DNA of 61,698 nt from Candidatus Omnitrophota bacterium (GCA_041661605.1 JBAZUE010000001.1:66786-128483); one strand, 5' to 3'. Positions 3,205 through 30,311 are shown, counted from the stretch's first letter. Program-made: numbers and translations. The notes: generated by a model from the letters alone, not told the origin.

Positions 3205-3241
3205 CAGGGACGTTTCTTGAGCCAATCGGAGAACTGTCCCC
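3204..3241 (+). repeat. GGGAC hairpin repeat, solo copy (family 2)
   Basis: acagggacgtttcttgagccaatcggagaactgtcccc is the exact reverse complement of 16899-16936 (38/38) and folds as an imperfect hairpin. Confidence 0.85.
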
Positions 3242-3259
3242 TAAGGCTATCTACTGAGC

Positions 3260-8934: not shown

Positions 8935-8968
8935 CTGTTTGATAATAAATGTGTTATGAAACAAATAT
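8918..8968 (+). repeat. 51-bp bipartite repeat R1 (family 1)
   Basis: gtagacagtctacgtaac-N17-gttatgaaacaaatat. Confidence 0.85.
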
Positions 8969-9023
8969 TTATAAGAAAAATAATGTATTAAAATGAAGAA
9001 TTATTTTATTTTCTTAAACCAAA

Positions 9024-9074
9024 ATATTTCTTATATAATTGATTGTCTCGCAATAGGTTATATAGACTGTCTAC
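9024..9074 (-). repeat. 51-bp bipartite repeat R2, inverted relative to R1
   Basis: + strand reads atatttcttatataat-N17-gttatatagactgtctac. Confidence 0.8.
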
Positions 9075-9081
9075 TATTCTT

Positions 9082-12811: not shown

Positions 12812-13974
12812 TGGATATAAGCAAACAAATAGAGATAATTAAAAGGGGCGCTGCGGAGATAATCTCTGAAGATGAGCTGCGCAAGAAGCTTGAGCAGAGC
12901 ATTAAAGCCGGGCGCCCCTTAAAAATCAAGGCTGGTTTTGACCCCACTGCCCCTGACCTGCATTTGGGCCACACAGTCTTATTGAGAAAACTGCGCCAGT
13001 TTCAGGATCTCGGCCATGAGGTTTATTTCTTAATCGGCGATTTTACCGGTCAAATTGGCGATCCGAGCGGCAGGTCAGAGACCCGCAAGCAGCTTTCAAA
13101 AGCAGAGGTTGCCAAGAATGCAGAGACCTATAAAAAGCAGGTAGCCAAGATTCTTGATACCTCAAAATTAAAGATAGTTTTTAACAGTAAATGGTTTGAA
13201 AAAATGTCAGTTGTAGAGTTGCTGCGTCTTACGACCCATTTATCAGTTTCTCAAATGCTTGCCCGTGATGATTTTAAAAAAAGATACACTGGAGGAGAGA
13301 ATATCTCAATTTTAGAGTTTATGTATCCTCTCATGCAGGGTTATGATTCAGTAGTTCTTGAGGCTGATGTTGAGCTGGGAGGGACTGATCAGATATTCAA
13401 TCTGTTAGTTGGCCGGGAATTCCAGAAAGATTTTAATCAGGCGCAGCAGGTGGTGTTGACCATGCCGTTATTAGAAGGCACTGATGGCGTACAGAAGATG
13501 AGCAAGTCTTATGGCAACTATATCGGTATAAATGAGCCGGCAAAAGATATGTTCGGTAAGATTATGTCGATTTCCGACGAGTTGATGCTTAAATATTATG
13601 AATTGCTCACTGATGAAGATTTAGGCTCCGTTAGGAACATGCACCCTAAGCAGGCAAAGGTAAACCTGGCCAAGATTATTATTACCCAATACCATTCGGC
13701 TCAAGCCGCGGAAAAAGAGGCAGAAGAGTTCAGCCGTGTTTTTTCCCAGAAAGAGATTCCTCAGGATATGCCGGTTTTTAAAACTGACGGGAAAAAGACC
13801 ATTCTGGCTATCCTTATTGAAAGCAGGTTGGCTGCCAGCGGCAATGAAGTCCGCAGGCTGATCAAACAGGGGGCAGTCAGTTTTAATAATATAAAAGTTG
13901 AAAAGGATGATTTTATCCCGAGTGAACCAGGCATCCTCAAGGCCGGTTCCCGCCGATTCCTTAAAGTCTTGTAG
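12811..13974 (+). CDS. tyrS: Tyrosine--tRNA ligase
   Basis: [26 protein letters not shown] and KMSKS motifs, C-terminal S4-like domain. The TAG stop lies in repeat R3. Confidence 0.97.
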
Positions 13975-14021
13975 ACAGTCTACGTAACCCCATATTCCAC
14001 AATCACATCTGTAAGAAATAT
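13971..14021 (+). repeat. 51-bp bipartite repeat R3
   Basis: gtagacagtctacgtaac-N17-catctgtaagaaatat. Confidence 0.85.
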
Positions 14022-14094
14022 TTCCCTTTCCTAAAATAATTATTGTTAGATTTTTTCACCTTTTGCGTCAATTGTAGCAGAAGGAGAGAAAACC

Positions 14095-14778
14095 ATGCCA
14101 TCATATGCACGCAAGCATCAATTGCAACAGTCCTTAGTATATCATGCATTTAGTAGAAGCAGCGGGCGCAAGGTGATTTTTCAAGAAGTAAAGGATTTTG
14201 ATCGTTTTAAATCATTGCTTTACGATTACGGCAATAGGTTTAATTCAAAGATATATCATTGGGCTATTATGCCGAATCATTACCATTTAGTGGTTGAATT
14301 CGAATGCCCTGAACTAATTTCGAAATTTATGGCAGGGTTACATCGGGCGTATAGCCATTATTACCATAAACAATATAACACGGTTGGTTTCTTATGGCAG
14401 GGTAGATTTAAATTACAGCCGATACAGAAAGATTTGTATCTGAAGAATTGCGGCAGGTATGTGGAGAGGAACCCGGTGCGTGCCGGGATAGTCAGGCAGC
14501 CCTGGGAATATGAGTATAGCAGTGCGCGATTTTATTGTTTAGGCCGCGAGGACGGGATAACGCAAGTGAGTCCTGATTATGAAGATTTTGGAAAAGAGAT
14601 TGTTTGCAGGCAAGCTGCTTATAAAAACTTTTTGAGTATTTTTGATAATAAAGAAGAGAATTATTTTGCGAATATAGAGATTCCGCGCGGCGACCGGGAC
14701 TTTCTTCGGAGGCTGGTAAAGAGCGGCGCGCATTATTTACCTAGAAGGCGGGGCAGGAAAGCCGCATTTGTTTCATAA
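14095..14778 (+). CDS. REP-associated tyrosine transposase (RAYT, Y1_Tnp HUH family)
   Basis: YHAFSRS...IF, MPNHYH (HUH motif), LWQGRF, and RYVERNPVRAG with the catalytic Tyr. Confidence 0.9.
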   Translation: MPSYARKHQLQQSLVYHAFSRSSGRKVIFQEVKDFDRFKSLLYDYGNRFNSKIYHWAIMPNHYHLVVEFECPELISKFMAGLHRAYSHYYHKQYNTVGFLWQGRFKLQPIQKDLYLKNCGRYVERNPVRAGIVRQPWEYEYSSARFYCLGREDGITQVSPDYEDFGKEIVCRQAAYKNFLSIFDNKEENYFANIEIPRGDRDFLRRLVKSGAHYLPRRRGRKAAFVS

Positions 14779-14814
14779 AGGTATATCTTTGATGGAATTA
14801 CGTACACTGTCTAC
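14764..14814 (-). repeat. 51-bp bipartite repeat R4
   Basis: gcatttgtttcataaa-N17-attacgtacactgtctac. Contains the RAYT TAA stop codon. Confidence 0.8.
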
Positions 14815-14859
14815 AATTTAGCTTTATTTCCCAAGGATTTCAGGTTATAATTATTAATT

Positions 14860-15132
14860 ATGTTTTGGACGCTGATTGGCGCAATGGCCGCCACCCTGAC
14901 CATGTTTTCATTTATCCCCCAGATAGCCAGGTGTTTAAGGACTAAATCTGTCAGGGATGTAAGCCCGGTTACTTTATTCCAGCTTTCTACCGGTGTTTTG
15001 CTCTGGATGGTTTACGGAATTTACCGCCAAGACCCCATAATCATTTTTGCCAATGCAATCACTTTAATAAGCTTGTCTATGTTGATTATTTTGTATTTTA
15101 AGTACAGCCAAAAACAAGGGGTGGATAGATGA
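14860..15132 (+). CDS. SemiSWEET / PQ-loop sugar transporter
   Basis: 90 aa, three TM helices, FIPQ motif, KSVRDVS, LWMVYG and ANAIT patterns. Confidence 0.88.
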
Positions 15133-16809: not shown

Positions 16810-17831
16810 TTACCGGCGGGGCCGGGTTCATCGGCAGCGCCTTCGTAAGATTGCTTATGAGGGACGTTTCTGAGCCCAAAGCAAGAACTGTCCCCTATGG
16901 GGACAGTTCTCCGATTGGCTCAAGAAACGTCCCTGTGGTTGTTGATAAGCTTACCTATGCCGGTGACCTGAAGCGGCTTGATGAGGTAGAAGGCAAGTTT
17001 AAATTTTATAAAATCGATATCTGTAATAAAAATAGGATAGGAGATATTTTTGCCAAAGAGAAACCGGATACCGTAGTCCATTTTGCCGCCGAAAGCCATG
17101 TTGACCGCAGTATCAATGACGCCACGCCGTTTGTTGAAACAAACATCAAGGGAACGCAGGTACTTCTTGACGCCAGCCGTGAATATAATATAAAGAAATT
17201 CATTTTTATCTCAACCGACGAGGTTTATGGGGAGATTGCCAACGGTAAGTTCAACGAAGATTCTCCGATTAAACCTAACAGCCCTTATGCGGCATCCAAG
17301 GCAGCAGCAGACCTCCTGGTGCAGGCCTATATCAGGACAAATAAATTCCCCGCGATAATTATCCGGCCGTCAAATAATTACGGGCCGTGGCAATATCCGG
17401 AGAAACTTATCCCGCTTGCCATATTGAGAATATTGGGAGAGGGAAAGGTCCCGGTTTATGGTAAAGGTTTAAATGTGCGTGAATGGTTGTATGTTGACGA
17501 TTGCGTGCGGGCTATTATGATGATTATGCACAAGGGAAAGATTGGCCAGATTTATAATTTGGGCAGCTCGTGCGAAAGCAGGAATATCGATACAGTAAAA
17601 TTATTGCTCAAAACTCTTGGAGCCGGACAGGACAGATTTGAGTTTGTCAAGGACCGCCTGGGCCACGATATAAGATACAGCCTCAATTCCAGAAAAGTTA
17701 CCAGGGAACTTGGCTGGAAACCGGGCATTAAGCTGTCACAGGGACTTAAACTCACGGTTGACTGGTCGCTTAAGCATCAAGCCTGGCTTAAGAGTAAATT
17801 AGCGGATATTAATAAGTTGTATAAGAAATAA
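16782..17831 (+). CDS. rfbB: dTDP-glucose 4,6-dehydratase with a 25-aa palindrome-encoded insertion
   Basis: GGAGFIGS, DKLTYAG, HFAAESHVDRSI, STDEVYG, YAASKA and NNYGPWQYPEKLIP motifs. Confidence 0.93.
   Translation: MRKRIPKILVTGGAGFIGSAFVRLLMRDVSEPKARTVPYGDSSPIGSRNVPVVVDKLTYAGDLKRLDEVEGKFKFYKIDICNKNRIGDIFAKEKPDTVVHFAAESHVDRSINDATPFVETNIKGTQVLLDASREYNIKKFIFISTDEVYGEIANGKFNEDSPIKPNSPYAASKAAADLLVQAYIRTNKFPAIIIRPSNNYGPWQYPEKLIPLAILRILGEGKVPVYGKGLNVREWLYVDDCVRAIMMIMHKGKIGQIYNLGSSCESRNIDTVKLLLKTLGAGQDRFEFVKDRLGHDIRYSLNSRKVTRELGWKPGIKLSQGLKLTVDWSLKHQAWLKSKLADINKLYKK
16860..16934. repeat. 75-bp palindromic doublet of the GGGAC hairpin (family 2), in frame inside rfbB
   Basis: Two 36-bp arms (16860-95 and 16899-934) inverted around tat. 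The right arm is the reverse complement of 3206-3241. Confidence 0.85.
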
Positions 17832-17843
17832 AAGAGGGGCAAT

Positions 17844-18902
17844 ATGGCCATTGTTGTAGTTACAGGTTCATGCGGTTTAATCGGTTCTGAAACCGTAAGT
17901 TTCTTTGCCGGAAAAGGTTTTGATGTCGTCGGTATCGACAACAATATGCGCAAGAGATTTTTTGGCGCTGACGGCTCAATCCTCTGGAATAAGAAACGCC
18001 TGCAAAAGTTGTATAAAAATTACCAGCACCACTCCATAGATATCCGCCAGCAGGATAAAATAAATTCAATTTTCAGGAAATTCAGCAAAGATATCGTTTT
18101 AATCGTGCACGCCGCGGCCCAGCCATCCCATGATTGGGCAGCAAAAGACCCGGCGGTTGATTTTGGCGTTAATGCCCAGGGCACACTGGTTATGCTTGAG
18201 GCCTTGCGCAAATTTTCTCCCGGGGCGGCATTCATTTTTACCTCAACGAATAAAGTTTACGGGGATACTCCTAACCGGCTGCCTCTAATTGAAAAAGAGA
18301 AGCGCTTCGAACTACCCGCAGATCACAAATATTTTAAAGGCATTGATGAAACAATGAGCATTGACAATTGCCTGCATTCAGTTTTTGGCGCCTCAAAGTT
18401 GGCTGCGGATATTATGACACAGGAGTACGGGAAATATTTTCATCTTAAGACAGGGGTCTTTAGGGGCGGCTGCCTTACCGGACCGGCGCATTCCGGAGCC
18501 GAGCTGCACGGATTTTTGTCCTATCTGGTTAAGTGCGCTGTGACAAAACGCAAATATAAAATTTACGGCTATAAAGGCAAACAGGTCAGGGACAATATAC
18601 ATTCTTTTGATTTGGTCAACGCGTTCTATTATTATTTCCAGAATCCCCGCTATGGCGAGGTTTATAATATGGGGGGAGGCAGGTTTGGCAATGTTTCGGT
18701 GCTTGAGGCGATTGAGATGTGCGAAAAGTTGACCGGCGAGAAGTTTGATTATGAATATATCGATACTAACCGCATCGGAGATCATATCTGGTGGATCAGC
18801 GATGTCTCTAAATTTAAATCGCATTATCCTGATTGGCAGTATAAGTTTGGCATAGAGGATACAATCAAGCAGATCTACGATAATTATAGACAGTGTATGT
18901 AA
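17844..18902 (+). CDS. CDP-paratose 2-epimerase (RfbE/TyvE)-like NAD-dependent epimerase
   Basis: [38 protein letters not shown] and GYKGKQVRD motifs. The stop lies in repeat R5. Confidence 0.8.
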
Positions 18903-18936
18903 TTCTTTTAAATCTAAATAGTTAGAAAACAAATAT
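18886..18936 (+). repeat. 51-bp bipartite repeat R5
   Basis: atagacagtgtatgtaat-N17-gttagaaaacaaatat. Confidence 0.8.
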
Positions 18937-18949
18937 TACCGAACAATCC

Positions 18950-18994
18950 CGCTCCTATTTTTTTGTAGTAGGCAAAATAGGGGCGTTCTTTTTT
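18950..18994 (+). terminator. Probable intrinsic terminator
   Basis: cgctcctatttt/aaaataggggcg 12-bp stem (one G-U pair), 12-nt loop, then ttcttttttg. Confidence 0.55.
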
Positions 18995-19187
18995 GTTAGA
19001 TTTCCCCCTTTTTGAGTCTATTAATGGTAGAAAGGGGGTTAAAATGAATGATGTAGAGATTTCTGCAGAAGTTAAAGAAGAAACTTTGAGGTTGCAAAAT
19101 GCAACCTCAAAGAGAGGTGGTAGACGGTATACTCCTTATGTTTTTACCGAACAAGGCGTAGTTATACTTTCTCTCGATTCAACCTGA
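18993..19187 (+). pseudogene. ORF6N-domain remnant
   Basis: LRLQNATSKRGGRRYTPYVFTEQGV matches the C-terminal ORF6N motif and the intact paralog at 20506. The N-terminal half is missing. Confidence 0.75.
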
Positions 19188-19203
19188 ATTAACCATCGTT
19201 TAA

Positions 19204-19254
19204 ATATTTCTTTTGTAACCTTCTATCTCTGATGGAATTACGTAGACTGTCTAC
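19204..19254 (-). repeat. 51-bp bipartite repeat R6
   Basis: atatttcttttgtaac-N17-attacgtagactgtctac, the closest copy to consensus. Confidence 0.9.
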
Positions 19255-19261
19255 ATAAATG

Positions 19262-19290
19262 TTGACATGGGCCAGGGATGAAAGTAAGAT
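19262..19290 (+). promoter_or_regulatory. sigma70-type promoter
   Basis: TTGACA (19262-67), 17-bp spacer, TAAGAT (19285-90). Confidence 0.65.
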
Positions 19291-19322
19291 AAATAAGAAA
19301 GTTTATTACCTATGGTGAGAAT

Positions 19323-20360
19323 ATGAAATATAGTAATGTTTTGATTACCGGAGGGGCGGGGTTTATCGGCAGCAACCTGGCGGTATATTTTAAACGAAAA
19401 TATCCGCAGCTTAAAATCTTCGCTTTGGATAATCTTATCCGCAGAGGGAGTGAATTTAATTTACCGCGGCTTAAGGAAAACGGTATTAAGTTTATCCGGG
19501 GAGATGTCAGGTACCCCAAAGATCTGGATTTAAAATTTGATATAGATTTGATATTAGAGTGTTCTGCCGAGCCGTCGGTACTAGCAGGTTATCAGAATCC
19601 ATCTTATATTATTGATACGAATTTAATGGGTACTGTTAACTGTCTTGAGTTGTGCCGTAAGCGTAAAGCAGGGATGATTTTTCTTTCGACAAGCAGGGTT
19701 TATCCCTATGAGCAGATAAACGCGATCAGCCGGCGGGAAACAAAGAGCAGGTTTGAGTGGCTGGGTTTTGGCGGTATTGATACGGATTTTTCTTTGACCG
19801 GAGCAAAGACTTTGTATGGCACGACTAAGTTAGCCTCGGAGTTCATCCTGCAGGAATATGTCGACGCATACGGGATCAAGGCGGTTGTGAACCGCTGCGG
19901 AGTGATTGCCGGGCCATGGCAGTTCGGTAAGGTTGATCAGGGGGTATTTACTTACTGGATGCTGGCGCATTATTTTAAGAGACCGCTTAAATATATCGGT
20001 TTTGGCGGCAAGGGCAAGCAGGTACGCGACCTTTTGCATATTGATGACCTTTGCCGGTTAATCGATATACAGGTAAACAAGCTTGGTAAATTAAGCGGCA
20101 ATACTTATAATGTCGGCGGCGCAAGAGAGGTAAGCCTTTCTTTGGTGGAGACCACCGCGCTTTGCCAGGAGATTACCGGTAATAAGATTAAAGTTGGCCG
20201 GGATTTGCGCCAGCGCCCGGGAGATATTGCGGTGTATCTTACGGATAATAGTAAAGTTACCCGGGAACTAAAATGGAAGCCGCAGAAGCAAGCTCCGGTG
20301 ATCCTGAAGGATATCTTTGATTGGATCAGGAGTAATGAAGCAAAGTTAAGAAAACTCTAA
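19323..20360 (+). CDS. Second RfbE-like NAD-dependent epimerase/dehydratase
   Basis: GGAGFIGS, SAEPSV, STSRVY, YGTTK, RCGVIAGPWQ and GKQVRD motifs. Confidence 0.8.
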   Translation: MKYSNVLITGGAGFIGSNLAVYFKRKYPQLKIFALDNLIRRGSEFNLPRLKENGIKFIRGDVRYPKDLDLKFDIDLILECSAEPSVLAGYQNPSYIIDTNLMGTVNCLELCRKRKAGMIFLSTSRVYPYEQINAISRRETKSRFEWLGFGGIDTDFSLTGAKTLYGTTKLASEFILQEYVDAYGIKAVVNRCGVIAGPWQFGKVDQGVFTYWMLAHYFKRPLKYIGFGGKGKQVRDLLHIDDLCRLIDIQVNKLGKLSGNTYNVGGAREVSLSLVETTALCQEITGNKIKVGRDLRQRPGDIAVYLTDNSKVTRELKWKPQKQAPVILKDIFDWIRSNEAKLRKL

Positions 20361-20402
20361 AGAATAGATCCGGCCCATAGAGTTGCGCCCTCCCTTCGCG
20401 TC

Positions 20403-20453
20403 GTATTTCTTTCCTAACTACTTATCCTTAATACAATTACGTAGACTGTCTAT
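20403..20453 (-). repeat. 51-bp bipartite repeat R7
   Basis: gtatttctttcctaac-tacttatccttaataca-attacgtagactgtctat, 48/51 identical to R8. Confidence 0.9.
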
Positions 20454-20505
20454 ACTCTAGTTAGATTTTATCTCTTGCTCCGTCTATTGGTGCAAGGAGG
20501 TTTAA

Positions 20506-21018
20506 ATGAATAAAAAAGAGATTGCGGTTGAGGTAGTGGCAACGAAGATTTTACTGGTGAGAGGCAGGAAAGTGATGTTGGATAAAGATTTAGCATTACT
20601 ATATGGAGTATCGACTATGAGATTGAATGAGCAGGTAAAAAGAAATAAAGAGAGGTTCCCTGAAGATTTTATGTTTCAACTTACAAAAGAAGAAGCTTCT
20701 AACTTGATATCGCATTTTGCGATATCAAGTTGGGGTGGTAATCGTAAATTACCGTATGTTTTTACGGAACAAGGAGTGGCTATGTTATCTAGTGTGCTGA
20801 ATTCAAAACGAGCAATCCAGGTCAATATAGCTATTATGCGTGCATTCGTGAAATTGCGGGAATTGTTATTAACACATAAGGAGCTAGCAGAAAAACTCGA
20901 GGAGTTAGAGCGTAAATATCAATTACACGAAACAGACATTCAGGCGATATTCGAAGTGATCAAAAAATTGCTTGAGCCTCCACCTGAACCACCAAAACCA
21001 CGATTTGGGTTGAATTAA
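20506..21018 (+). CDS. ORF6N domain DNA-binding protein (phage antirepressor-like)
   Basis: RGRKVMLDKDLALLYGV, LNEQVKRNKERFPEDFMFQLT, LPYVFTEQGVAMLSSVLNSKRAIQVNIAIMRAF. AAGGAGG RBS upstream. Confidence 0.92.
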   Translation: MNKKEIAVEVVATKILLVRGRKVMLDKDLALLYGVSTMRLNEQVKRNKERFPEDFMFQLTKEEASNLISHFAISSWGGNRKLPYVFTEQGVAMLSSVLNSKRAIQVNIAIMRAFVKLRELLLTHKELAEKLEELERKYQLHETDIQAIFEVIKKLLEPPPEPPKPRFGLN

Positions 21019-21028
21019 GAGACCTGCT

Positions 21029-21079
21029 GTATTTCTTTCGTAACTACTTATCCTTAATGCAATTACGTAGACTGTCTAC
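21029..21079 (-). repeat. 51-bp bipartite repeat R8
   Basis: gtatttctttcgtaac-tacttatccttaatgca-attacgtagactgtctac. Confidence 0.9.
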
Positions 21080-21090
21080 TATACTAATTA

Positions 21091-21119
21091 TTGACATAAA
21101 TATGGGATGTAGGTAGAAT
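21091..21119 (+). promoter_or_regulatory. sigma70-type promoter
   Basis: TTGACA (21091-96), 17-bp spacer, TAGAAT (21114-19). Confidence 0.7.
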
Positions 21120-21143
21120 ATAAATGTAATCAGATTTTAAAAT

Positions 21144-21929
21144 ATGCCTATCAAATTCTCGCTTGGCTGTTTTAAAGATCCAATAGACTCCCGCGATATC
21201 CCCATGGGGCTAGTTTTACCCATAATCCCAATCCCCGTAAGTTTTGACTTCACCAAATTAATGAGCCCGGTTAGAAATCAAGGAAACGAAGGGACTTGTG
21301 TTGCTTTTGCTTCGGTTGTTGGTGTTAAGGAATTTCAGGATAAAAAAGAATATCGTAAACTCATCAAGCTTTCCCCGCGTTTTCTTTATAATCTGTGCAA
21401 GAAATTTGACGGCGCTCCATTTGAAGAAGGCACTTATCCGCGTATCGCGATGAAGGTGTTATTAAATCACGGTGTTTGCCATGAATCTTTATGGCCGTAT
21501 GCTCCGCATCAAAAAAGCCTTCCCTTAAAAGGCGCAGATAAAGACGCGAAGAAGTTTAAGATCAAGGCCTATGCCCGGCTTAACTCGCAGCTTGAAATGA
21601 AACGCAGCCTCGTCGTAAATGGTCCTTTTCTTGCCGGAGTAAATGTATATAAATCCTGGTTTAATAAAAGTGTAGAGAAAAACGGTTTTGTCCCTATGCC
21701 CAAACGCAATGAAAAACTGATGGGAGGGCATGCCATTTGCATTGTTGGCTATGATGATAAGTTCAAAGTTTTTAAGTTTAAGAATTCCTGGGGCGCAAAA
21801 TGGGCGGATAGGGGTTATGGGTATCTGCCATATGAATATATCAAGAAATATTGCAGCGATGCCTGGAGCGCCACGGATTTAATTGAAAACCCGAAAGCCT
21901 TGGTCAAATCAATGCAGGCTTCAATGTAG
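21144..21929 (+). CDS. Papain-like C1 family cysteine peptidase
   Basis: VRNQGNEGTCVAF (oxyanion Gln and catalytic Cys), LSPRFLY, GGHAICIVGY (His), KNSWG (Asn) and WADRGYGYLPY. Confidence 0.9.
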   Translation: MPIKFSLGCFKDPIDSRDIPMGLVLPIIPIPVSFDFTKLMSPVRNQGNEGTCVAFASVVGVKEFQDKKEYRKLIKLSPRFLYNLCKKFDGAPFEEGTYPRIAMKVLLNHGVCHESLWPYAPHQKSLPLKGADKDAKKFKIKAYARLNSQLEMKRSLVVNGPFLAGVNVYKSWFNKSVEKNGFVPMPKRNEKLMGGHAICIVGYDDKFKVFKFKNSWGAKWADRGYGYLPYEYIKKYCSDAWSATDLIENPKALVKSMQASM

Positions 21930-21938
21930 GAGGTGGAT

Positions 21939-22103
21939 ATGGATAATGAAGGCGGATTCTTGGTTAAGTTTGACGGAAAAAAGTCTCTTCGCTGCTACAA
22001 GATAGAATTTGACTATGACGAATGGCAATATATCGTTAACGGGACAGAAAAGAAAGAACTGCCTCCTTGTGTAAAAAATATAACTATTAAAGTAGAGGGG
22101 TAA
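21939..22103 (+). CDS. Unannotated 54-aa hypothetical protein
   Basis: AGGAGG RBS overlapping the peptidase stop. ATG 21939 to TAA 22103 encodes MDNEGGFLVKFDGKKSLRCYKIEFDYDEWQYIVNGTEKKELPPCVKNITIKVEG, below the ORF-track cutoff. Confidence 0.65.
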   Translation: MDNEGGFLVKFDGKKSLRCYKIEFDYDEWQYIVNGTEKKELPPCVKNITIKVEG

Positions 22104-22130
22104 TAATCTGCGCAGGTGGTGGAACATTAA

Positions 22131-22181
22131 GTATTTCTTTTGTAAGTATATATTGTTTATGAGGTTACATAGACTGTCTAT
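22131..22181 (-). repeat. 51-bp bipartite repeat R9
   Basis: gtatttcttttgtaag-N17-gttacatagactgtctat. Confidence 0.85.
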
Positions 22182-22190
22182 GAATATGAC

Positions 22191-22248
22191 TTGACAAAGT
22201 GTAGTTTATCGTGCATACTTGTTTCTGTAGATATATAAAATTATATAT
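22191..22248 (+). promoter_or_regulatory. abiE promoter and candidate autoregulatory inverted repeat
   Basis: TTGACA (22191-96), 17-bp spacer, CATACT (22214-19). Perfect inverted repeat atatataa-aa-ttatatat at 22231-48. Confidence 0.55.
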
Positions 22249-22256
22249 ATAAAGAA

Positions 22257-22898
22257 ATGAAGCTTACAGAATTTGTTAAAAAATACAGCAAGGAACAGGT
22301 TATTGATTCTTCAACCTTTTCTTTGCTTGGCGAGGATCCGCAGAATATCCGCTGCCAGGTACAATATTGGCGCAGGCAGGGGCACCTTATTCTGCTTAAG
22401 CGCGGAGTTTACGTCTTAAGCAATGACCTTAGAAAACAGCCGTTATCTATGGGGTTTATTTCAAACTTTTTATTTTCGCCATCATATATCAGCCTTGAGT
22501 ATGCCTTGAGTTATTATGATTTAATCCCGGAGGCAGCAATGGTTTATACTTCTGTTTCAACTAAGAAAACAACAAAATTTAATACTCCTTTGGGAGTTTT
22601 TGAATACCGTTCAATCAAGGAAGAACTTTTTTTTGGGTTTACTAAAGCAACGGATGAAGGGCAGAATTATTTTATTGCTTATCCCGAGAAAGCGATCCTG
22701 GATTTTTTCTATTTTCATCAAGATATGGATGGAAGCGAGAGCGAATTTGAATCCTATAGGTTTCAAAACCTGGAAAGCCTGAATTTAAAGCGTTTTAATG
22801 AATTTAGAGGTAAATATAATAAGAAAACTAATGATATTGCTCGGTCATTCGCCGGTTTTATTAAATCAGGCAAGATGAGGTATAAAACACTTAGATGA
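22257..22898 (+). CDS. abiEi: Type IV TA antitoxin AbiEi-like
   Basis: N-terminal wHTH (LILLKRGVY), SYISLEYALSYYDLIPE and IAYPEKAILD. Overlaps the downstream nucleotidyltransferase gene. Confidence 0.82.
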   Translation: MKLTEFVKKYSKEQVIDSSTFSLLGEDPQNIRCQVQYWRRQGHLILLKRGVYVLSNDLRKQPLSMGFISNFLFSPSYISLEYALSYYDLIPEAAMVYTSVSTKKTTKFNTPLGVFEYRSIKEELFFGFTKATDEGQNYFIAYPEKAILDFFYFHQDMDGSESEFESYRFQNLESLNLKRFNEFRGKYNKKTNDIARSFAGFIKSGKMRYKTLR

Positions 22899-23701
22899 GA
22901 GATTACATTAAATCAGTTGTTGATCCTAATTTGACGCGAAATCAAAACCTTAACCGAATCAGGGAATATTTGCAGACATATTTCCTTAATATTATCTATA
23001 AAAATAAATTTTATCAAAATCTTGTTTTTACGGGCGGGACCGCTTTACGGTTTATTTACAAGATCAGGCGGTTTTCCGAGGATCTTGATTTCAGTTTGTC
23101 AGCCAAGGCCAGGAATTATAATTTTACCGATATGGTGGAGAATATCTTACAGGAGTTTAAGTTAGCCGGATACGATCTGGAGATTAAATATGATGAAAGC
23201 CGCGCCGTGCACAGCGCTTTATTGAAATTCTCAGGTATTCTTTTTGAAACCGGCTTGAGCCCTTTGAAAGGGCAGAAAATTGCCATTAAGGCGGAGGTTG
23301 ATTCCAACCCGCCTTTGGGTGGAATTGAAACCAGCAGTGTGTATAATTCAAATTTTATGTTTTATATGCTGCACTATGATTTAGCTTCTTTATTTGCCGG
23401 TAAAGTGCACGCGCTTTTATGCCGTGAGTACACTAAGGGCAGGGATTGGTATGATTTGTTATGGTATCTGACAAAATTTAAAGACTTAGAGCCGAATTTT
23501 ATTATGCTCAATAACGCTTTTGCTCAGACATCCCGGAAGCCGGTTAAGCTTACCGTTGATAACTGGAAAGCAGAAATCAAGAAAACCGTGGAAACTTTAG
23601 ACTGGGCAAAGGTCAGAAATGATGTCAGTTGGTTACTTGAGGATAGCAGTGAGCTTGGCTTGCTTGAGTCAAAAACTTTCGTCAATTTGCTTAAAGAATA
23701 A
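22895..23701 (+). CDS. abiEii: Type IV TA toxin AbiEii nucleotidyltransferase
   Basis: FTGGTAL, RFSEDLDF, KVHALL and KGRDWYD motifs. Confidence 0.9.
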   Translation: MRDYIKSVVDPNLTRNQNLNRIREYLQTYFLNIIYKNKFYQNLVFTGGTALRFIYKIRRFSEDLDFSLSAKARNYNFTDMVENILQEFKLAGYDLEIKYDESRAVHSALLKFSGILFETGLSPLKGQKIAIKAEVDSNPPLGGIETSSVYNSNFMFYMLHYDLASLFAGKVHALLCREYTKGRDWYDLLWYLTKFKDLEPNFIMLNNAFAQTSRKPVKLTVDNWKAEIKKTVETLDWAKVRNDVSWLLEDSSELGLLESKTFVNLLKE

Positions 23702-23722
23702 TTCACAAATCAGAAATACGTA

Positions 23723-23773
23723 ATATTTCTTTCGCAACCGCTTAATTTTGATAGGATTACGTACACTGTCTAT
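23723..23773 (-). repeat. 51-bp bipartite repeat R10
   Basis: atatttctttcgcaac-N17-attacgtacactgtctat. Confidence 0.85.
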
Positions 23774-23779
23774 TGAGAT

Positions 23780-24553
23780 ATGATTAAGCCAAAGGATACC
23801 CTGCGTAAACGTTTTATCGCCGCTGAATCCGACTATCTCGTTATTGAAACCATTCAAACATTGTCATCGCGAGGCTGCCAAGGGCAGCCGAAGCAATCTC
23901 GTCTCCGTATCCTCAAGCTTAAAGGCACCTGGCACGCCAATGATTATAATGAACTTTGCTTTGAAGTTACCTTGCGCAAAGGCCCGCCTGAAACCTATAC
24001 CTTTAAAGGAAGCTGGAAGTTAAACAACAACCAGCAGATTGAATATACAACTGAAGATGGCCGCGATACTTTAACTTTTAAAGGTTGTTGGGATATATCT
24101 TCGGCTAATCGCCTTGTTTATATACTTGAAGGCAGCTCAACCTCGCGCTTTGAATTCAAAGTCCAGCTTGAATCACCAGTAGTCTATCCTAAAAAAGGAG
24201 AGATCCGCTATCGTATCGGCATAGGAATCCGCCAAAGCCACCTGACCGCACCTGGCCAGTTACTTATTCTCTACGGAGAATGGAGGTTTGGCCGCAATTT
24301 AGGGCTTACCTTTCAGATGTATTATGGCCAGGGGGTGGTTAGGGCAATAGAGTTTGGGGCAGAGGTTACCTTTGGCCGCAATAAGGCTATTTTCGCGCTC
24401 AAAAATGAGTTTGGTAAGTCTTTAGGTATAACTCTCACCATGACGCATAAATTCTTAGAACATTTTGACGCTGAAGCCTTTATCAAACTGAAATCCCGTC
24501 ACAATGAACATAGCGAACAGGCAATAGAAGTCGGAATCACCATTCCGTTTTAG
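23780..24553 (+). CDS. Hypothetical beta-rich protein with GxW repeats
   Basis: 257 aa with four [LF]xGxW units and a C-terminal Phe. A decayed paralog lies at 29584-30311. Confidence 0.7.
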   Translation: MIKPKDTLRKRFIAAESDYLVIETIQTLSSRGCQGQPKQSRLRILKLKGTWHANDYNELCFEVTLRKGPPETYTFKGSWKLNNNQQIEYTTEDGRDTLTFKGCWDISSANRLVYILEGSSTSRFEFKVQLESPVVYPKKGEIRYRIGIGIRQSHLTAPGQLLILYGEWRFGRNLGLTFQMYYGQGVVRAIEFGAEVTFGRNKAIFALKNEFGKSLGITLTMTHKFLEHFDAEAFIKLKSRHNEHSEQAIEVGITIPF

Positions 24554-24574
24554 AATTAAACAAAACTTGCTCAA

Positions 24575-24625
24575 GTGTTTCTTTTGTAACCACCTAGTAT
24601 TAATGAGATTACGTGCGCTGTCTAT
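24575..24625 (-). repeat. 51-bp bipartite repeat R11
   Basis: gtgtttcttttgtaac-N17-attacgtgcgctgtctat. Confidence 0.8.
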
Positions 24626-24725
24626 GATTTTATGATTTTTACAATTTTAGGATTTGTGGTATTATAGAGATTAATTGGAAGTAGATTGAGAATTGTAGAG
24701 ATTGGTAAACAATTAGTCGAACTAA

Positions 24726-26354
24726 GTGGAAAATTTAATTAAAAATAATCAGTATAACATAGGTCATATCTGTACAAGGTTGCAGTGCGAAATTGGCAAT
24801 GCAGATAAGATTTCGATGCGTTGGATAACTCCGGATATGCAGCATGTCGATTATAGCTTTAATGATCTTGAAGACCAATCAAACAAATGTGCAAATGTTT
24901 TGCAATCACTAAGTCTCTCCAAGGGCGATATTATGTTTACCCTTCTTCCTAAAATACCTGAGCAGTTCTTTGTCTTATTGGGCGCGCTAAAATTACAGCT
25001 TATCGTCAGTCCATTATTTGCCAATTTCGGAGAAGAAGCCATACTTGATCGGATGGGTGATGCATGCGCTAAGGTATTGGTCACTAAAAAGAGCTTTTTA
25101 AGAAAGATCGAAAAGATAAAAAACCATTTGTTTCACTTAAAGTACGTAATCGTTGTTGATAGCGAAAGTGATTTGCCGTCTGACGTTTTAAGTTACCCGG
25201 CATTGATAAAAAATGCGAAAAGTGTTTTTGAAACTCCGCTAACCGGTAAAGATACACCGTCTCTTTTACATTATACTTCAGGCTCGACAGGAAAACCGAA
25301 AGGCGTTCTACATGTCCATGGTGGCATAATTACCATTAATCAGACAACAAAAGAAATACTGGGTCTCAAAGAAAACGATAAATATTGGTGTACTGCTGAT
25401 CAAGGATGGGTTACGGGAACGTCATATGGCATGATAGGGCCGTGGAGCCTGGGAATTACCCAGATCCATTTTAGCGGTCAATACAGTCCGGGAATATGGT
25501 TTACGATATTAGAAAAAGAGAAGATAAATGTCTGGTATACGGCGCCTACAGCGCTCAGAATGCTAATGAAAGAGGACTCCGCACTCTTCAAGAAATTTAA
25601 TCTGAAGGAGCTGCGACACATCTGTAGCGTCGGCGAGCCGCTGAATCCTGAAGTCATAAACTGGTCGCGCAAAATATTGGCTAAAGAGACCTACGATACG
25701 TGGTTTATGACTGAAACCGGAGCGATCATGATCGCTAACCGTCTCGGTATTGATGTAAAGCCTGGCTCCATGGGAAAGCCGATCGAAGGCATGGAAGTGG
25801 CTATTCTTACTGATAAAGGGGAGCTGGCTCAGAGTAATCAGCGCGGTATTTTATGTTTAAAAGCAGGATGGGAATCTATGTTCGTTACCTATCTTAATAA
25901 CGAGGAAGCTTATAAACAAAAGTTCAAGGATGGCTACTATTATTCCGGGGATGTTGCTTTTATGGATAAGGAAGGATATTATTGGTTTGCTGGGCGGAAG
26001 GACGATGTTATTAACACTGCCGGCCATCTTGTAGGGCCTTTTGAGGTTGAGAGCGCGTTACTTGAAATCGAAGAGGTAGAGGAGGTGGCTGTGATCGGCG
26101 CATCCGATGAAATACTATACGAAAAGATAGTGGCATTTATCAAGCTAAAATCAGGTAATATTTATAATAAAGAGCTGGAGCTTAAGATTCAGGTACACAT
26201 CGCTAACAAGGTGTCAACAATAGCTGTTCCGCAGGATATTGTGGTTGTAGAGGGCATCCCAAAGACCAGGAGCGGCAAGATTATGAGAAGGGTGCTGAAG
26301 GCGCAGTATCTGGGCCAGGATGCAGGCGACCTTTCAACTATGGAGGAATTCTAG
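24726..26354 (+). CDS. AcsA-like acetate/acyl--CoA (or carrier protein) ligase, AMP-binding family
   Basis: YTSGSTGKPKG, WCTADQGW, SVGEPLNP, DTWFMTETG and TRSGKIMRR motifs. Confidence 0.85.
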   Translation: MENLIKNNQYNIGHICTRLQCEIGNADKISMRWITPDMQHVDYSFNDLEDQSNKCANVLQSLSLSKGDIMFTLLPKIPEQFFVLLGALKLQLIVSPLFANFGEEAILDRMGDACAKVLVTKKSFLRKIEKIKNHLFHLKYVIVVDSESDLPSDVLSYPALIKNAKSVFETPLTGKDTPSLLHYTSGSTGKPKGVLHVHGGIITINQTTKEILGLKENDKYWCTADQGWVTGTSYGMIGPWSLGITQIHFSGQYSPGIWFTILEKEKINVWYTAPTALRMLMKEDSALFKKFNLKELRHICSVGEPLNPEVINWSRKILAKETYDTWFMTETGAIMIANRLGIDVKPGSMGKPIEGMEVAILTDKGELAQSNQRGILCLKAGWESMFVTYLNNEEAYKQKFKDGYYYSGDVAFMDKEGYYWFAGRKDDVINTAGHLVGPFEVESALLEIEEVEEVAVIGASDEILYEKIVAFIKLKSGNIYNKELELKIQVHIANKVSTIAVPQDIVVVEGIPKTRSGKIMRRVLKAQYLGQDAGDLSTMEEF

Positions 26355-26356
26355 TA

Positions 26357-26593
26357 ATGGACGTCAGGGATAAAATGAACGGGATATTCCGGGAAGTTTT
26401 CAATGACGATACCATACAAATAAAGCCCGAAACGACAGCTAATGACATTGAAGGCTGGGATTCGTTTTCGCATGTTACTCTTATTACAGCTATTGAAATA
26501 AGGTTTAATATAAAGTTTAGCATAAAGGAGTTTATGTCTTTTAAGAGCGTAGGGGATTTAATTAGGTGCATTGAGCGAAAAGTAGTAGTTTAA
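26357..26593 (+). CDS. Acyl carrier protein
   Basis: 78 aa, acidic, with the IEGWDSFSHV phosphopantetheine-Ser motif. Confidence 0.88.
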   Translation: MDVRDKMNGIFREVFNDDTIQIKPETTANDIEGWDSFSHVTLITAIEIRFNIKFSIKEFMSFKSVGDLIRCIERKVVV

Positions 26594-26623
26594 TTATCTT
26601 AATAAAGAAAGTAGAAGCCCGCC

Positions 26624-28066
26624 ATGCTATTTAAATTTATACAATTTTTAGTATTTTTTGCAGCCGTCTATATCCCATATCTTTTCCTCAATCATAAATG
26701 GCAGAATAGGCTGCTTCTTGTAGCAAGCTGCATATTTTACGCTGCCTGGGACTGGAGATTTATATTTCTGATATTCGTTTCGATAACTATTGATTACTTC
26801 TGCGGATTAAGGATCGATAAGTCGGACAACGACAAAGTAAGGAAGTATTTTTTATTATTAAGCATATTTGTAAATCTCTCTATCCTTGGTTTTTTCAAGT
26901 ATTTTAACTTCTTCATAGCTAATTTTTCCCGGCTTATAAATCATCTCGGGTTTTCCATACATCCGCAGATGCTTAATATACTACTGCCTTTGGGCATTTC
27001 TTTCTATACGTTTAAGACCATAAGCTATACCATTGATGTCTATACGGAGAAGATCAAGCCTACCAGAAGCTACCGGGATTACGCGCTCTTTGTAAGTTTC
27101 TTTCCGCTTATTCTGGCGGGGCCCATCATGAGGGCAGGGGATCTTCTTCGCCAAATAGCATCTCCGCGCAAGGTGCAGCTCGAAGGGTTCTACAAGGAGG
27201 GCTGCTATCTTATATTTTGGGGGGGATTCCAAAAATTTTTTGTTGCGGATAATTTAGCTATAATAGCTAATAAGTTATTTAATCCATCACCGCCATATAA
27301 CGGTATCATGGTTCTTTTGGCAGCCTATGCTTTTGCATTTCAAATATATTGCGACTTTGCCGGGTATTCTAATATAGCCAGAGGCTTGGGTAAATGCATG
27401 GGCTTTGATATTATGGTCAATTTTAACTTACCCTATTTTGCCACAAATCCCCAAGATTTTTGGAACAGGTGGCATATTTCCCTGTCAAATTGGCTACGCG
27501 AGTACCTTTACAATCCTATCTCTTTTAGCCTGAGACGGTGGGGTGTCTGGGGGGTAAGCATTGCTTTGATGGCCACGTTCCTTCTTTGCGGGCTTTGGCA
27601 TGGCGCATACTGGAATTATATTATATGGGGAGGGTACTGGGGGATACTGCTTATATCATATGCACTACTCAGGCCTTTGCTTGCAAAGATTCCTAATCCC
27701 AAAAAAGCCATATTTCAAAAGGTATGGTTTTTTATAAGAGTCATATTTTTCTTTCATGTCATATGCTTTGGATGGGTCATCTTCAAGGCGGAGGGGAATG
27801 CAACTAAAGCTTTCAGTATGCTGCAAAGTTTATTTTGTAATTTCCATTGGGGCAGAGGAGTTGACATAAAATATAGTGCTATGGGCATGATTTCATTTTT
27901 ATGGTTGTTAGGGATCGTCGAGATAGTGCAATATTGGAAGAATGATCCAATGGTAGTTTATAAATCCAACAGTATATTAAAGGTGTGTTTTTGTATTCTA
28001 TGCCTTTATTTGCTATTATCGTGCGGAGTTGCTAGTGAGGGAAGTTTTATTTACTTTCAATTTTAA
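26624..28066 (+). CDS. MBOAT O-acyltransferase (AlgI/DltB type)
   Basis: LPLGISFYTF, YCDFAGYS, FWNRWHISLSNWLREY and GLWHGA (catalytic His). Confidence 0.93.
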   Translation: MLFKFIQFLVFFAAVYIPYLFLNHKWQNRLLLVASCIFYAAWDWRFIFLIFVSITIDYFCGLRIDKSDNDKVRKYFLLLSIFVNLSILGFFKYFNFFIANFSRLINHLGFSIHPQMLNILLPLGISFYTFKTISYTIDVYTEKIKPTRSYRDYALFVSFFPLILAGPIMRAGDLLRQIASPRKVQLEGFYKEGCYLIFWGGFQKFFVADNLAIIANKLFNPSPPYNGIMVLLAAYAFAFQIYCDFAGYSNIARGLGKCMGFDIMVNFNLPYFATNPQDFWNRWHISLSNWLREYLYNPISFSLRRWGVWGVSIALMATFLLCGLWHGAYWNYIIWGGYWGILLISYALLRPLLAKIPNPKKAIFQKVWFFIRVIFFFHVICFGWVIFKAEGNATKAFSMLQSLFCNFHWGRGVDIKYSAMGMISFLWLLGIVEIVQYWKNDPMVVYKSNSILKVCFCILCLYLLLSCGVASEGSFIYFQF

Positions 28067-28171
28067 GAAACTTCCCAAGGCTGCAACAATAGATATTTAT
28101 AAATACTATTAAGTGAGGATGGGTTATGGTTTTTATTGATAATGTTCTTCAGGATTTAAGGTATTTGGGGT

Positions 28172-29158
28172 TTGAGAATGCTTAAAGCTTCGTTTAAGAT
28201 TTTGGTTTTTTATATTATACTTCCCCTGATGGTCGTTGAGTTGTTGCTCCGATTGTTTAATCCCATCTACTTTTGTAGTACTGTATTTCAATTCCGCTAT
28301 GATAAAGACGTTGGAGTAACTACAAGACCTAATTTAAATAAAAGCATTTTGACTGATCATGTAATTGAAGCCCTTACCAATGACATAGGCTCAAGGAATT
28401 ATTTAAACAAAGCAGAGTTGAACAGTTATAAAAAACTTATTTTTTGCGTTGGTGATTCTTATACCGAGGGAATAGGCGGACTCACGGATCAAAGTTATAC
28501 TTTTTATTTGGATTTGCTATTAAATAATAAGAGTGGAATATACGAGAAAAATTTTGCCGTTGTTAATCTTGGATTAGGAGGATATGGTTCTATACAATCA
28601 GAACTTACGGTTTTGCAGTATGTAAGAATATTTGGGAGGGTACCAGACGCAATCATTTATTTTGTCGCTAACAACGACTGTGGCGATGATGCGTCTTATG
28701 AGCTTGGTTTTTTTCATAGGTTTGTTGTATTGGGTAGTCCCTATTACAATCGCATAACTATAATGATAAACGAACTTTTAGAAAATACTCAAGTTTGGCG
28801 AAGGTTCAAATTGCTGATTAGTCCAACAGTACATAAAAACTTTTCCCCGGCAGAAAGTGATGAGATATGCTCGCCAGAGAATTTGAGTGGTTTGAAAGCT
28901 TTGATAAAATTCGCAAGAGACAACAATATCAAGTTAATAATCTCTCATACTGGTTATACCGGAGTTGGGTATGATTTATTTAAGAGTTTTGCAAAAGAAA
29001 ATAAGATTCCATTTGCAGATTATAAGCCTGATGTAATAAGCATAAGTACAGCCAACCCAAGGCTGCCTGTATTTAACAGTCATTCAGGAGGGCATTATCG
29101 TTCTTGGGTATACTATATTGTTGCAGGTAAGTTTGCTGAGTTTTTTAAAGATAATTAA
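28172..29158 (+). CDS. SGNH/GDSL-fold acyltransferase/esterase
   Basis: N-terminal TM, VGDSYTEG (block I), NLGLGGYG (II), ANND (III) and GGHY (His). Confidence 0.75.
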   Translation: MRMLKASFKILVFYIILPLMVVELLLRLFNPIYFCSTVFQFRYDKDVGVTTRPNLNKSILTDHVIEALTNDIGSRNYLNKAELNSYKKLIFCVGDSYTEGIGGLTDQSYTFYLDLLLNNKSGIYEKNFAVVNLGLGGYGSIQSELTVLQYVRIFGRVPDAIIYFVANNDCGDDASYELGFFHRFVVLGSPYYNRITIMINELLENTQVWRRFKLLISPTVHKNFSPAESDEICSPENLSGLKALIKFARDNNIKLIISHTGYTGVGYDLFKSFAKENKIPFADYKPDVISISTANPRLPVFNSHSGGHYRSWVYYIVAGKFAEFFKDN

Positions 29159-29309
29159 CAAAATCAAAATATAATATTATTTCGTTAAGATTTTCCCATT
29201 CAAAAAGAGAAACAAGGGAGGGACTTAATCGTTCAGTCCTTTTTGTCTTGTGCCAAAAATGTGCCTATCTTATACAGAAACACTCGTTAACAAACCGTAA
29301 TAAAACTAA

Positions 29310-29360
29310 ACAACCGGACTGTATAACTCATTGATAATATAAATGTTTGTATAGAATGTT
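29310..29360 (+). repeat. Possible highly degenerate 51-bp repeat (R12)
   Basis: acaaccggactgtataac-tcattgataatataaat-gtttgtatagaatgtt, about 29/51 identical to R1 by eye with the same box geometry. Confidence 0.35.
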
Positions 29361-29407
29361 CTTTTAACGACGAGAGTTAGGGAAATACGCTTGACAGAAT
29401 TCTTGCA

Positions 29408-29530
29408 TATTGGCGAGAACTTAAGGAGCGGTTGTAAAACGAGGATAGAGAAGTCGTGACATTTTGTCACGGGTTGAAACTGAAGGCTTCTGATAGAAGA
29501 TTGCGTGAAGCCGATTGTGCCACCTTATGA
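29408..29530 (+). pseudogene. Bro-N/phage antirepressor-like remnant
   Basis: Translates YWRELKERL*NEDREVVTFCHGLKLKASDRRLREADCATL*, resembling the YWxxLKxRL...V.FCHGLKL.A.DG..R..D.A motif of Bro-N-like proteins. Internal stop, no start. Confidence 0.6.
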
Positions 29531-29534
29531 TTTA

Positions 29535-29585
29535 GAATTTGTTTTGTGACTAGCTGACAATTATGAAATTATGTATACTGTCTAT
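29535..29585 (-). repeat. 51-bp bipartite repeat R13
   Basis: gaatttgttttgtgac-N17-attatgtatactgtctat. Confidence 0.75.
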
Positions 29586-30311
29586 GATTGTTCGTAAGCG
29601 GCTTATCACCGCGGAATCTGATTCTCTGGTTATCGAAACCATTCAAACTTGGGATAAGCCTGCAATCTCGCCTGCGCATCCTTAACCTTAAGGGTATCTG
29701 GCGCGCTAATGATCAAATGAACTTTTTTTGATGTTGCCCTGCGCAAGGGTCCGCCTCAAACTTACACCTTTAAGGGAAGCTGGAAGCTTAATAATAATCA
29801 GCAGATTGAATATACTTCTGAAGATGGCCGCGATAAATTAACTTTTCAGGGCTATTGTAACATTTCTTCGGCTAACTGCCTGGTTTATATGCTGGAAAGC
29901 AGTTTAACCTCGCGTTTTGAATTCAAAGTCCAGCTTGAATCGTCTGTTTTACGCCCGAGAAAGGGAGAGATCCGTTATCGCATCGGAGTGGGAATACGCC
30001 AAAGCCGCTTGACCGCCCCCGGCAATCTGCTTATTCTATATGGTGAATGGAAGTTTGGCCGGGATTTAGGGCTGATCTTCCGGATGGATTACGGGCAGGG
30101 CAGGGTAAAGTCACTGGAATTTGGGGCGCAGGTGGATTTTAACAGGAATAAAGTAATTTTTGCGCTGAAAAATGAGTTTGGAAAGCCCCTGGGTATTACT
30201 CTTACTGTGACGCATAAATTTTTGAAAGCCGTTGACACAGAAGCCTTTATAAGGCTAAAATCCTACCGGAAAACCCGGGCAGTTGAAGCCGGGTTTAGCC
30301 TTCCTTTTTAA
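29584..30311 (+). pseudogene. Frameshifted paralog of the 23780-24553 GxW-repeat protein
   Basis: MIVRKRLITAESDSLVIETIQT, then frameshifts near 29650 and 29715-29730. QSRLRILNLKGIW and ALRKGPPQTYTFKGSWKLNNNQQIEY continue in shifted frames into ORF 29889-30311. Confidence 0.85.

Follow-up and report, generated by a model that had tools for sequence, protein, structure and literature searches.

Transposases of the RAYT type are widespread, mostly single-copy and of debated role, and the repeats that accompany them are usually taken to mark DNA that is old and stable. The pdif (XerC/D-site) modules of Acinetobacter and the minimal mobile elements of Neisseria are small accessory modules, in many cases toxin-antitoxin pairs, that are bounded by short conserved sites or by conserved flanks, and both are exchanged without a dedicated recombinase gene alongside. 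Described systems that pair a transposase gene with a repeat include the TIRtrons, whose RAYT-like genes, the TIR-associated tyrosine transposases (TIRYTs), lie between long inverted repeats that are not palindromic and whose repeat copies, in small families, occur alone, in pairs or in groups (Di Nocera et al., 2013, PMC3733652), and RAYT groups 1 and 4, which are characterised by low repeat counts, with 12-14 flanking 16-mers (Bertels et al., 2017, PMC5581495). In Pseudomonas, variable regions are REP deserts (PMC3390384). Here we analyse a stretch of 61,698 nucleotides (nt) from a metagenome-assembled genome of a Candidatus Omnitrophota bacterium (GCA_041661605.1 JBAZUE010000001.1:66786-128483; hereafter, the window) and, within it, positions 19204-29585, where a succession of gene modules, each followed by a co-oriented repeat of about 52 nt, had been interpreted in a preliminary description, made from the sequence alone, as an integron-like cassette array that lacks an integrase. 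This part of the window is a hypervariable islet with conserved rfb genes on one side and a variable glycan cluster on the other, and on balance we consider it rather probable that a family of transposase-associated repeats has seeded the gaps of this islet, beside its own gene, and that its copies now move together with the modules.

The repeat is a two-box element of fixed length, for which repeat search, a core-motif scan and a profile of the copies in this genome yield 12 copies in the window, between 8.9 and 29.6 kb, each with an E-value of 1e-8 to 1e-13 against the profile. The assembly as a whole holds 23 solid copies (four inverted pairs and 15 singles), all of them on contig C1, and 12 of these 23 lie within 20.7 kb, a length for which the expectation is about 0.4 copies. 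The family is small and clustered round a transposase gene, its inverted pairs being either empty or placed around the transposase gene or an ORF6N gene, with solo copies in addition. As the preliminary description had stated, seven co-oriented copies stand in a row behind the stop codons of + strand frames (R6 to R12, all solo and all on the + strand; Table 1), at distances of 16, 42, 10, 27, 21, 21 and 4 nt in array order; these gaps, as given there, agree with the ends of the open reading frames (ORFs) at 19187, 20360, 21018, 22103, 23701, 24553 and 29530, and the reported near-identity of R7 and R8 was recovered at 48 of 50 positions. Among 108 distinct copies, drawn from this genome and from relatives, we found no indels: two invariant boxes of about 15 and 18 nt, TATTTsTT..TAA and TTAC.TA.ACTGTCTA, enclose a variable centre of about 18 nt, and the outer end reads GTAG in 63 copies (58%) and ATAG in the other 45. 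The GTAGAC/GTCTAC palindrome, the motif at which the preliminary description looked for breakpoints, is not the conserved core and was rejected as a functional core because the G that makes it palindromic is present in only 29 of the 108 copies (27%).

Single copies do not fold, with a mean minimum free energy of -2.16 kcal/mol against -2.29 kcal/mol for shuffled sequences (108 copies), and the alignment of copies holds no Watson-Crick covariation. Six of the seven array repeats have fold z-scores between -1.2 and +1.6 (R6 has -2.4), and folding is limited to inverted doublets, such as the one at 8917-9075, which forms a long hairpin (z-score -4.6). Known RNA families were found neither at the Rfam gathering score in the whole window nor at E<=1 between 13.9 and 30.4 kb. 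A role as intrinsic terminator was also tried and rejected: terminator-like sites number 11, against 9.5 expected, and none coincides with a repeat.

The gene to which the repeats are tied encodes a protein that matches Pfam Y1_Tnp above the cut-off (E-value 2e-15, 57 bits). Its best NCBIfam model is REP_Tyr_transpos, at 61 bits and thus below the cut-off of 80, and the IS200 model scores 25 bits for a cut-off of 55. The gene is enclosed by an inverted pair of repeats, R3 and R4 (Table 1), and the same arrangement recurs in at least 12 relatives, while in two of them, G010 and L023, the flanks are direct repeats (G and L numbers are labels of relatives and their loci throughout). Across 25 genomes of the genus, the repeat is present in all nine that carry an orthologue of the transposase (at least 78% identity) and in five of the 16 that do not (hypergeometric p about 0.001), and in other families of the order no repeat was found above control level. 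Given the inverted flanking pair and the co-occurrence of gene and repeat across the genus, both of which bear out the link to a RAYT-type gene of the window proposed earlier, the 52-nt repeats are predicted to be the terminal repeats of this Y1/HUH transposase, which is probably of the RAYT/TIRYT type.

The transposase gene is not fixed in place. In L020 (= G010:C47; 6814-7647) and L023 (9935-10724) it follows an ORF6N gene and has direct repeats on its two sides, with a related site in L011 (around 8560-8590); in G010, no repeat separates tyrS from the next gene, the two overlapping (ATGA), which leaves a clean empty site. Its position between direct repeats at a new place, together with the empty tyrS site of G010, suggests that this 'domesticated' gene has moved within the genus. 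A second Y1 paralogue, 53% identical, is encoded at C1:44594-45331 and has weak repeat-like flanks (44496-44537 and 45288-45330). Directly upstream of both Y1 transposase genes and of ORF6N genes we observed the motif GTTAGATTT-N~16-CGTC(T/A)ATTG followed by GGAGG, which also precedes a spoVG-like gene, the recA and brnT promoters, and a gene that we take, by eye, to be anti-sigma-like; its sites lie at 14045-14090, 20458-20502 and around 18986-19030 in the window and at C1:44583(+), 519003(-), 780742(-), 501842(-), 223137(+) and 812951(-). The motif looks like a promoter of the extracytoplasmic function (ECF) sigma type and, being common to both, raises the possibility that transposase and ORF6N are co-regulated.

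For comparison, homologous loci were taken from genomes of the same genus and from metagenome contigs, and genes and repeats were mapped on each. Every comparison is one between species or between unrelated metagenome contigs and the direction of most events is unpolarised, and at a divergence of 15-20% the ends of conserved blocks partly mark the end of selection rather than a DNA joint. An exact protein look-up for variants within the species returned one contig only, in which gene order is identical, and gave no match for the epimerase. Upstream of the islet, gene order is kept from nadD to the epimerase gene at 17844 (the 17844 gene); past it, almost every genome has its own gene content and order. 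Two kinds of change are apparent: repeats are gained and lost alone, in gaps that are otherwise unchanged, and whole modules come and go, replace one another and pass from species to species.

The first kind is seen, among other places, in gaps beside conserved rfb genes. The gap between rfbB and the 17844 gene has no repeat in the window (12 nt) or in L006 and L011 (1 nt), but is 80-92 nt long and holds one in L001, L003, L015, L024 and G041. Likewise, the gap between the gene at 14860 and rfbA holds a repeat in G041 only. The second kind is illustrated by the AbiE block (22185-23773), which is 91% identical in nucleotide sequence to its counterparts in G012 and G019 (about 82% for its flanks), shows a synonymous divergence (dS) of 0.15-0.48 versus 0.7-1.9 for neighbouring core genes, and is missing from L018 despite flanks that are 94-95% identical to those of G012. 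The gain, loss and reordering of cassettes that the preliminary description expected among relatives is seen in so far as discrete modules vary in presence and order, but many of the breakpoints lie away from the repeats.

Module borders fall exactly at a repeat end in some cases and not in others. Among the latter are new junctions that hold no repeat at all, namely rfbB to the orphan 'GxW' gene in L016, the 14860 gene to GxW in L025, peptidase to GxW in L023, ORF6N to a small ORF to GxW in L003, peptidase to AbiE in L019 and ORF6N to AbiE in L047. In G041, homology stops at the stop codon of the epimerase gene at 19323, 42 nt before R7, and is followed, without a repeat, by a reading frame that we presume from inspection by eye to be flippase-like. 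A unit of spacer, repeat and ORF6N gene that is present in L045 and missing from L077 has its repeat inside and not at its ends. The AbiE insertion in G012 and the insertion of a DUF6036 pair in L023 are flanked by duplications of about 95-105 nt from the 3' end of the preceding gene, and these duplications, at two independent insertions, point to homology-facilitated illegitimate recombination after uptake of foreign DNA as their probable origin. Their coordinates are 20496-20587 and 22214-22305 on L006, and 2800-2901 and 4353-4454 on L023, with a GAAGC microhomology at one joint. The preliminary description had named two patterns as contrary to its integron-like interpretation, repeats simply present or absent in pre-existing gaps and breakpoints that do not coincide with them, and both occur.

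We infer from these comparisons that the transposase would seed repeats locally, that the seeded repeats would then ride along with modules, and that the turnover of the modules may be due mainly to horizontal transfer and general recombination, either homologous or of the homology-facilitated illegitimate kind, the repeats occasionally acting as short recombination points. With passenger repeats seeded in this way and turnover brought about by transfer and recombination, the array would be integron-like in look and not in mechanism.

Several observations weigh against this explanation. In G041, the closest relative (88-92% nucleotide identity), the transposase with its repeat is followed by BrnT/BrnA, a second repeat and the next gene, where the window has one repeat, and the difference between the two, BrnT/BrnA plus one repeat, runs exactly from the ...GTCTAC of one repeat to the ...GTCTAC of the next; for this indel the breakpoint predicted earlier at GTAGAC/GTCTAC is exact, which it is not at others, such as the G041 break upstream of R7. 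The peptidase pair of the window and an MNT/HEPN pair of L041 occupy one slot between homologous repeats, and the 3' border of the AbiE module is the 3' end of a repeat in every genome, beside four different neighbours. Furthermore, ORF6N has one repeat variant on both of its sides in several species, identical repeat variants are found in differing contexts across species, and the conserved boxes are short for RecA-type recombination. Finally, the repeats are densest in the most variable DNA, the opposite of the 'REP deserts' of Pseudomonas (PMC3390384).

The exact indel, which holds against several genomes, the slot swap and the constant right border of AbiE, with its low dS and its presence or absence between close relatives, would suit a cassette platform driven by the transposase. 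So would the new site of the transposase gene in G010 and L023, between direct repeats, with the clean empty site in G010, the orientation of solo copies in the loci of relatives (74 of 87 are co-oriented with the genes, 13 opposite) and a toxin-antitoxin and defence cargo like that of chromosomal integrons. In such a platform the Y1 enzyme would cut the same strand at equivalent positions of two co-oriented repeats, a single-stranded circle of one module and one repeat would be released and reinserted beside another repeat, and arrays of toxin-antitoxin, defence and glycan-modifying genes would grow and shrink as integrons do, by HUH chemistry and not by a tyrosine recombinase. However, when all fetched loci were screened for two co-oriented repeats with cargo as opposed to one repeat, with the flanks kept, the BrnT/BrnA site was the only one found, and a deletion between direct repeats that share 18 identical nt and lie 650 nt apart requires no enzyme. 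The AbiE, ORF6N and DUF6036 units have left borders that do not coincide with repeats, many junctions are repeat-free, solo repeats spread without cargo, and single repeats lack the hairpin that known Y1 transposases need, so we regard a transposase-driven platform as unlikely. One further split was observed in L047, where the repeat behind AbiE is cut after ...GGATT (6606-6642, 36 nt) and the identical 36 nt recur about 910 nt on, at 7551-7603, with the right box, behind a zeta-toxin-like insert; the breakpoint lies inside a repeat, at ATT|AC.

The orientation of the repeats has a counterpart elsewhere on contig C1. All genes of the window are on the + strand, and the strand bias of genes on C1 is extreme, with about 100% on the leading strand in both replichores and a sharp switch in GC skew near 340 kb. 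Repeats at C1 positions 480557, 549978, 574816, 579568, 585724, 587345 and 590703 are on the + strand while the local genes are all on the minus strand, and in this other replichore the GTCTAC end of solo repeats overlaps the stop codon of the upstream gene. A second array, at C1:574-591 kb, lies among a mixture of housekeeping and accessory genes. A rule of orientation by replication strand was ruled out, as solo copies are on the + strand in both replichores while genes and GC skew flip, and a rule by transcription was ruled out by the same + copies in the replichore of minus-strand genes.

Within the islet, a sigma-70-type promoter match (a TTGACA-type -35 with a spaced -10; all promoter calls are consensus matches only) stands just after R6, R8, R9 and R11, that is, in four of the seven modules, and in units of relatives too, with TTGACA 8-11 nt past the repeat in several of them. 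Such matches favour the passenger interpretation, in which the modules (ORF6N/PDC-S05, peptidase pair, AbiE, GxW and glycan acylation) are self-contained and solo repeats occupy the gaps that separate them. The constant position of the repeats between a stop codon and the next promoter would agree with solo repeats that are selected as cis punctuation between independently transcribed modules, either as the site of an insulating, silencing or co-regulating protein or as an element of the 3' untranslated region, with their orientation set by that role. The fixed length, the two invariant boxes, the lack of indels, the strong orientation bias and the copies of the other replichore, which overlap stop codons in the opposite sense, would fit the same role. 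Nevertheless, the presence of the repeats on both sides of the transposase gene and their co-occurrence with it are explained by selfish spread, orthologous gaps function whether or not they hold a repeat, the promoter of AbiE is kept without a repeat in G012, G019 and L047, and neither a terminator-like fold nor an Rfam match was found; punctuation as the reason for the solo repeats thus appears quite improbable.

What gave the array its integron-like appearance, co-oriented units of gene and site with toxin-antitoxin and defence cargo, would also be seen in an attC cluster lacking integrase (CALIN), the remnant of a true integron, and the repeats even have loose AAC...GTT-like ends (GTAAC...rTTAC). 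Yet single sites do not fold, in line with the earlier judgement that they are not attC-like, four of the seven modules have a promoter match of their own, and the sites are the ends of a Y1 transposase gene. No tyrosine recombinase was found in the window by Pfam search, again as described before; on C1, Pfam Phage_integrase matches only at 390, 658 and 776 kb, and NCBIfam assigns the C1 tyrosine recombinases to XerD, XerC and a generic integrase. Two more Phage_integrase matches lie on the GC-rich contigs C5 and C6. Contigs C4-C8 have a GC content of 0.63-0.69, compared to 0.42 for C1-C3, and were probably binned from a different organism. The search of the assembly for IntI and serine recombinases that the preliminary description had suggested found no IntI (integron-integrase scores of 137, 133 and 42 bits versus a cut-off of 265) and two large serine recombinases, which are on another contig than C1; the completeness of the assembly is about 85%. 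With no fold, no covariation and no IntI, attC sites and an integron were ruled out, and a CALIN is scarcely credible. A Xer/dif-like site was likewise dropped by eye, as the repeat lacks an 11-6-11 layout. What stands of the integron-like interpretation is that modules carry repeats and that some borders are exact; repeats that spread without cargo and the many repeat-free junctions speak against the rest.

The modules themselves carry most of the contents first ascribed to them (ORF6N, epimerase, C1 peptidase, AbiE, GxW and acylation genes; Table 1), except for a Bro-N remnant near the right end, for which there is no Pfam match at E<=1; the last 'stop' of the array there ends a frame of 30 codons without homology. 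AbiEi and AbiEii are matched by PADLOC. In relatives, the slots are filled by BrnT/BrnA, MNT/HEPN, Fic, zeta-toxin-like, DUF6036 nucleotidyltransferase, PLD-like and AAA_14-DUF4143 genes, and it is from the cargo of the window and from what relatives hold in the same slots that we consider the region a toxin-antitoxin and defence islet. The glycan acylation genes (24726-29158) have no counterpart in any fetched relative. In relatives, GxW opens the variable glycan cluster downstream, with a repeat directly before it in several of them. A second repeat family, truly palindromic and about 75 nt long (GGGACGTTTCT...GGGGACAG...), is present in the window at 16860-16934 and 3194-3246; it lies in frame within rfbB and also in intergenic gaps of relatives, for example between the 17844 and 19323 genes in L004 and L006.

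Table 1. Repeats, transposase unit and modules of the islet, in window coordinates.
Feature	Position	Strand	Remarks
Inverted doublet R1/R2	R1 8917-8970; R2 9022-9075	R1 -; R2 +	Between nadD-like and rpe genes; R1 gives the nadD stop codon; present in most relatives, absent from some
R3, predicted left terminal repeat of transposase unit	13969-14024	-	Contains the tyrS stop codon
Y1/HUH transposase gene, probable RAYT/TIRYT type, 227 aa	14095-14778	+	Pfam Y1_Tnp
R4, predicted right terminal repeat	14763-14816	+	Overlaps the transposase stop codon
R5	18885-18939	-	Gives the stop codon of the epimerase gene at 17844-18902
Decayed ORF6N gene, between R5 and R6	18993-19187	+	Pfam ORF6N, E 2e-6; ORF6N reading frame in this slot also in L040, L045, L062 and L081
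R6, solo	19202-19255	+	Identical copy in L045
SDR epimerase/dehydratase	19323-20360	+	Resident; adjoins the 17844 gene in most relatives
R7, solo	20400-20453	+	Variant accompanies ORF6N in four genomes
ORF6N-domain gene	20506-21018	+	PADLOC candidate defence gene PDC-S05
R8, solo	21028-21080	+	Near-identical to R7
Papain-family peptidase (Peptidase_C1) and coupled small ORF	21144-22103	+	Promoter match TTGACA-17-TAGAAT, 21091-21119
R9, solo	22129-22181	+	
AbiE module	22185-23773	+	Promoter match; AbiEi 22257-22898; AbiEii 22895-23701; R10, solo, 23720-23773
Orphan GxW gene, copy 1	23780-24553	+	No family match
R11, solo	24573-24626	+	
Glycan acylation module: AMP-binding, carrier protein (PP-binding), MBOAT and SGNH/GDSL genes	24726-29158	+	
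Decayed non-coding stretch	29159-29533		Bro-N remnant unconfirmed
R12, solo	29534-29585	+	
GxW copy 2, frameshifted	29588-30311	+	About 80% nucleotide identity to copy 1

Where RAYT-associated repeats are commonly read as signs of settled DNA, this family does the reverse: it crowds into the 20 kb of the genome that change most, where it borders modules for defence and for toxin-antitoxin pairs. If the enzyme did handle the modules, this would provide a function for RAYT/TIRYT proteins and a second route, by different chemistry, to gene capture of the integron-like kind; if it does not, the locus would be a clean example of selfish repeats gathering in the defence islets of small-genome, uncultured bacteria.

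Compared with known systems, the locus shares with integrons and CALINs the co-oriented units of a gene and a 3' site, a cargo rich in toxin-antitoxin and defence genes and a content that varies between relatives, but differs in that there is no IntI and no attC fold, most modules have a promoter match, sites spread alone and the owner of the sites is an HUH transposase. With pdif modules and minimal mobile elements it has in common small, often toxin-antitoxin modules at short conserved borders; unlike in pdif, the site has no Xer-like 11-6-11 layout and the enzyme is a Y1 transposase, and any exchange through flanking homology is presumptive. It is also unlike IS200/IS605 elements, with their subterminal hairpins in direct orientation and their several near-identical gene copies, as there are no hairpins, the arms are inverted in this genome and the two Y1 genes are only 53% identical. 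REP/REPIN-RAYT systems, such as TnpA-REP of E. coli with its REP/BIME repeats or the REPINs of Pseudomonas, come closer: here, too, a low-copy Y1 transposase gene lies between inverted repeat copies, copies are extragenic, doublets fold into hairpins and gene and repeat co-occur, and the low count resembles that of RAYT groups 1 and 4. In contrast to them, the single unit is non-palindromic, the GTAG head is found in no more than 58% of copies, the copy number is 23 and not in the hundreds, the copies accumulate in a variable region and the gene has changed place within the genus. With TIRtrons, the locus shares a RAYT-like Y1 gene within long inverted repeats (non-palindromic arms of 52 nt and not GTAG hairpin REPs), a moderately abundant repeat family of singles, dimers and groups, and a repeat that overlaps the 3' end of the gene, a likeness to TIRYTs in the layout of gene and repeats. 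Unlike in TIRtrons (PMC3733652), its solo copies are co-oriented, cluster within about 20 kb of the gene and stand between interchangeable modules with defence or toxin-antitoxin genes, an association that PMC3733652 does not describe. Taken together, the locus fits TIRtrons, fits classical hairpin REPs less well, and does not fit attC.

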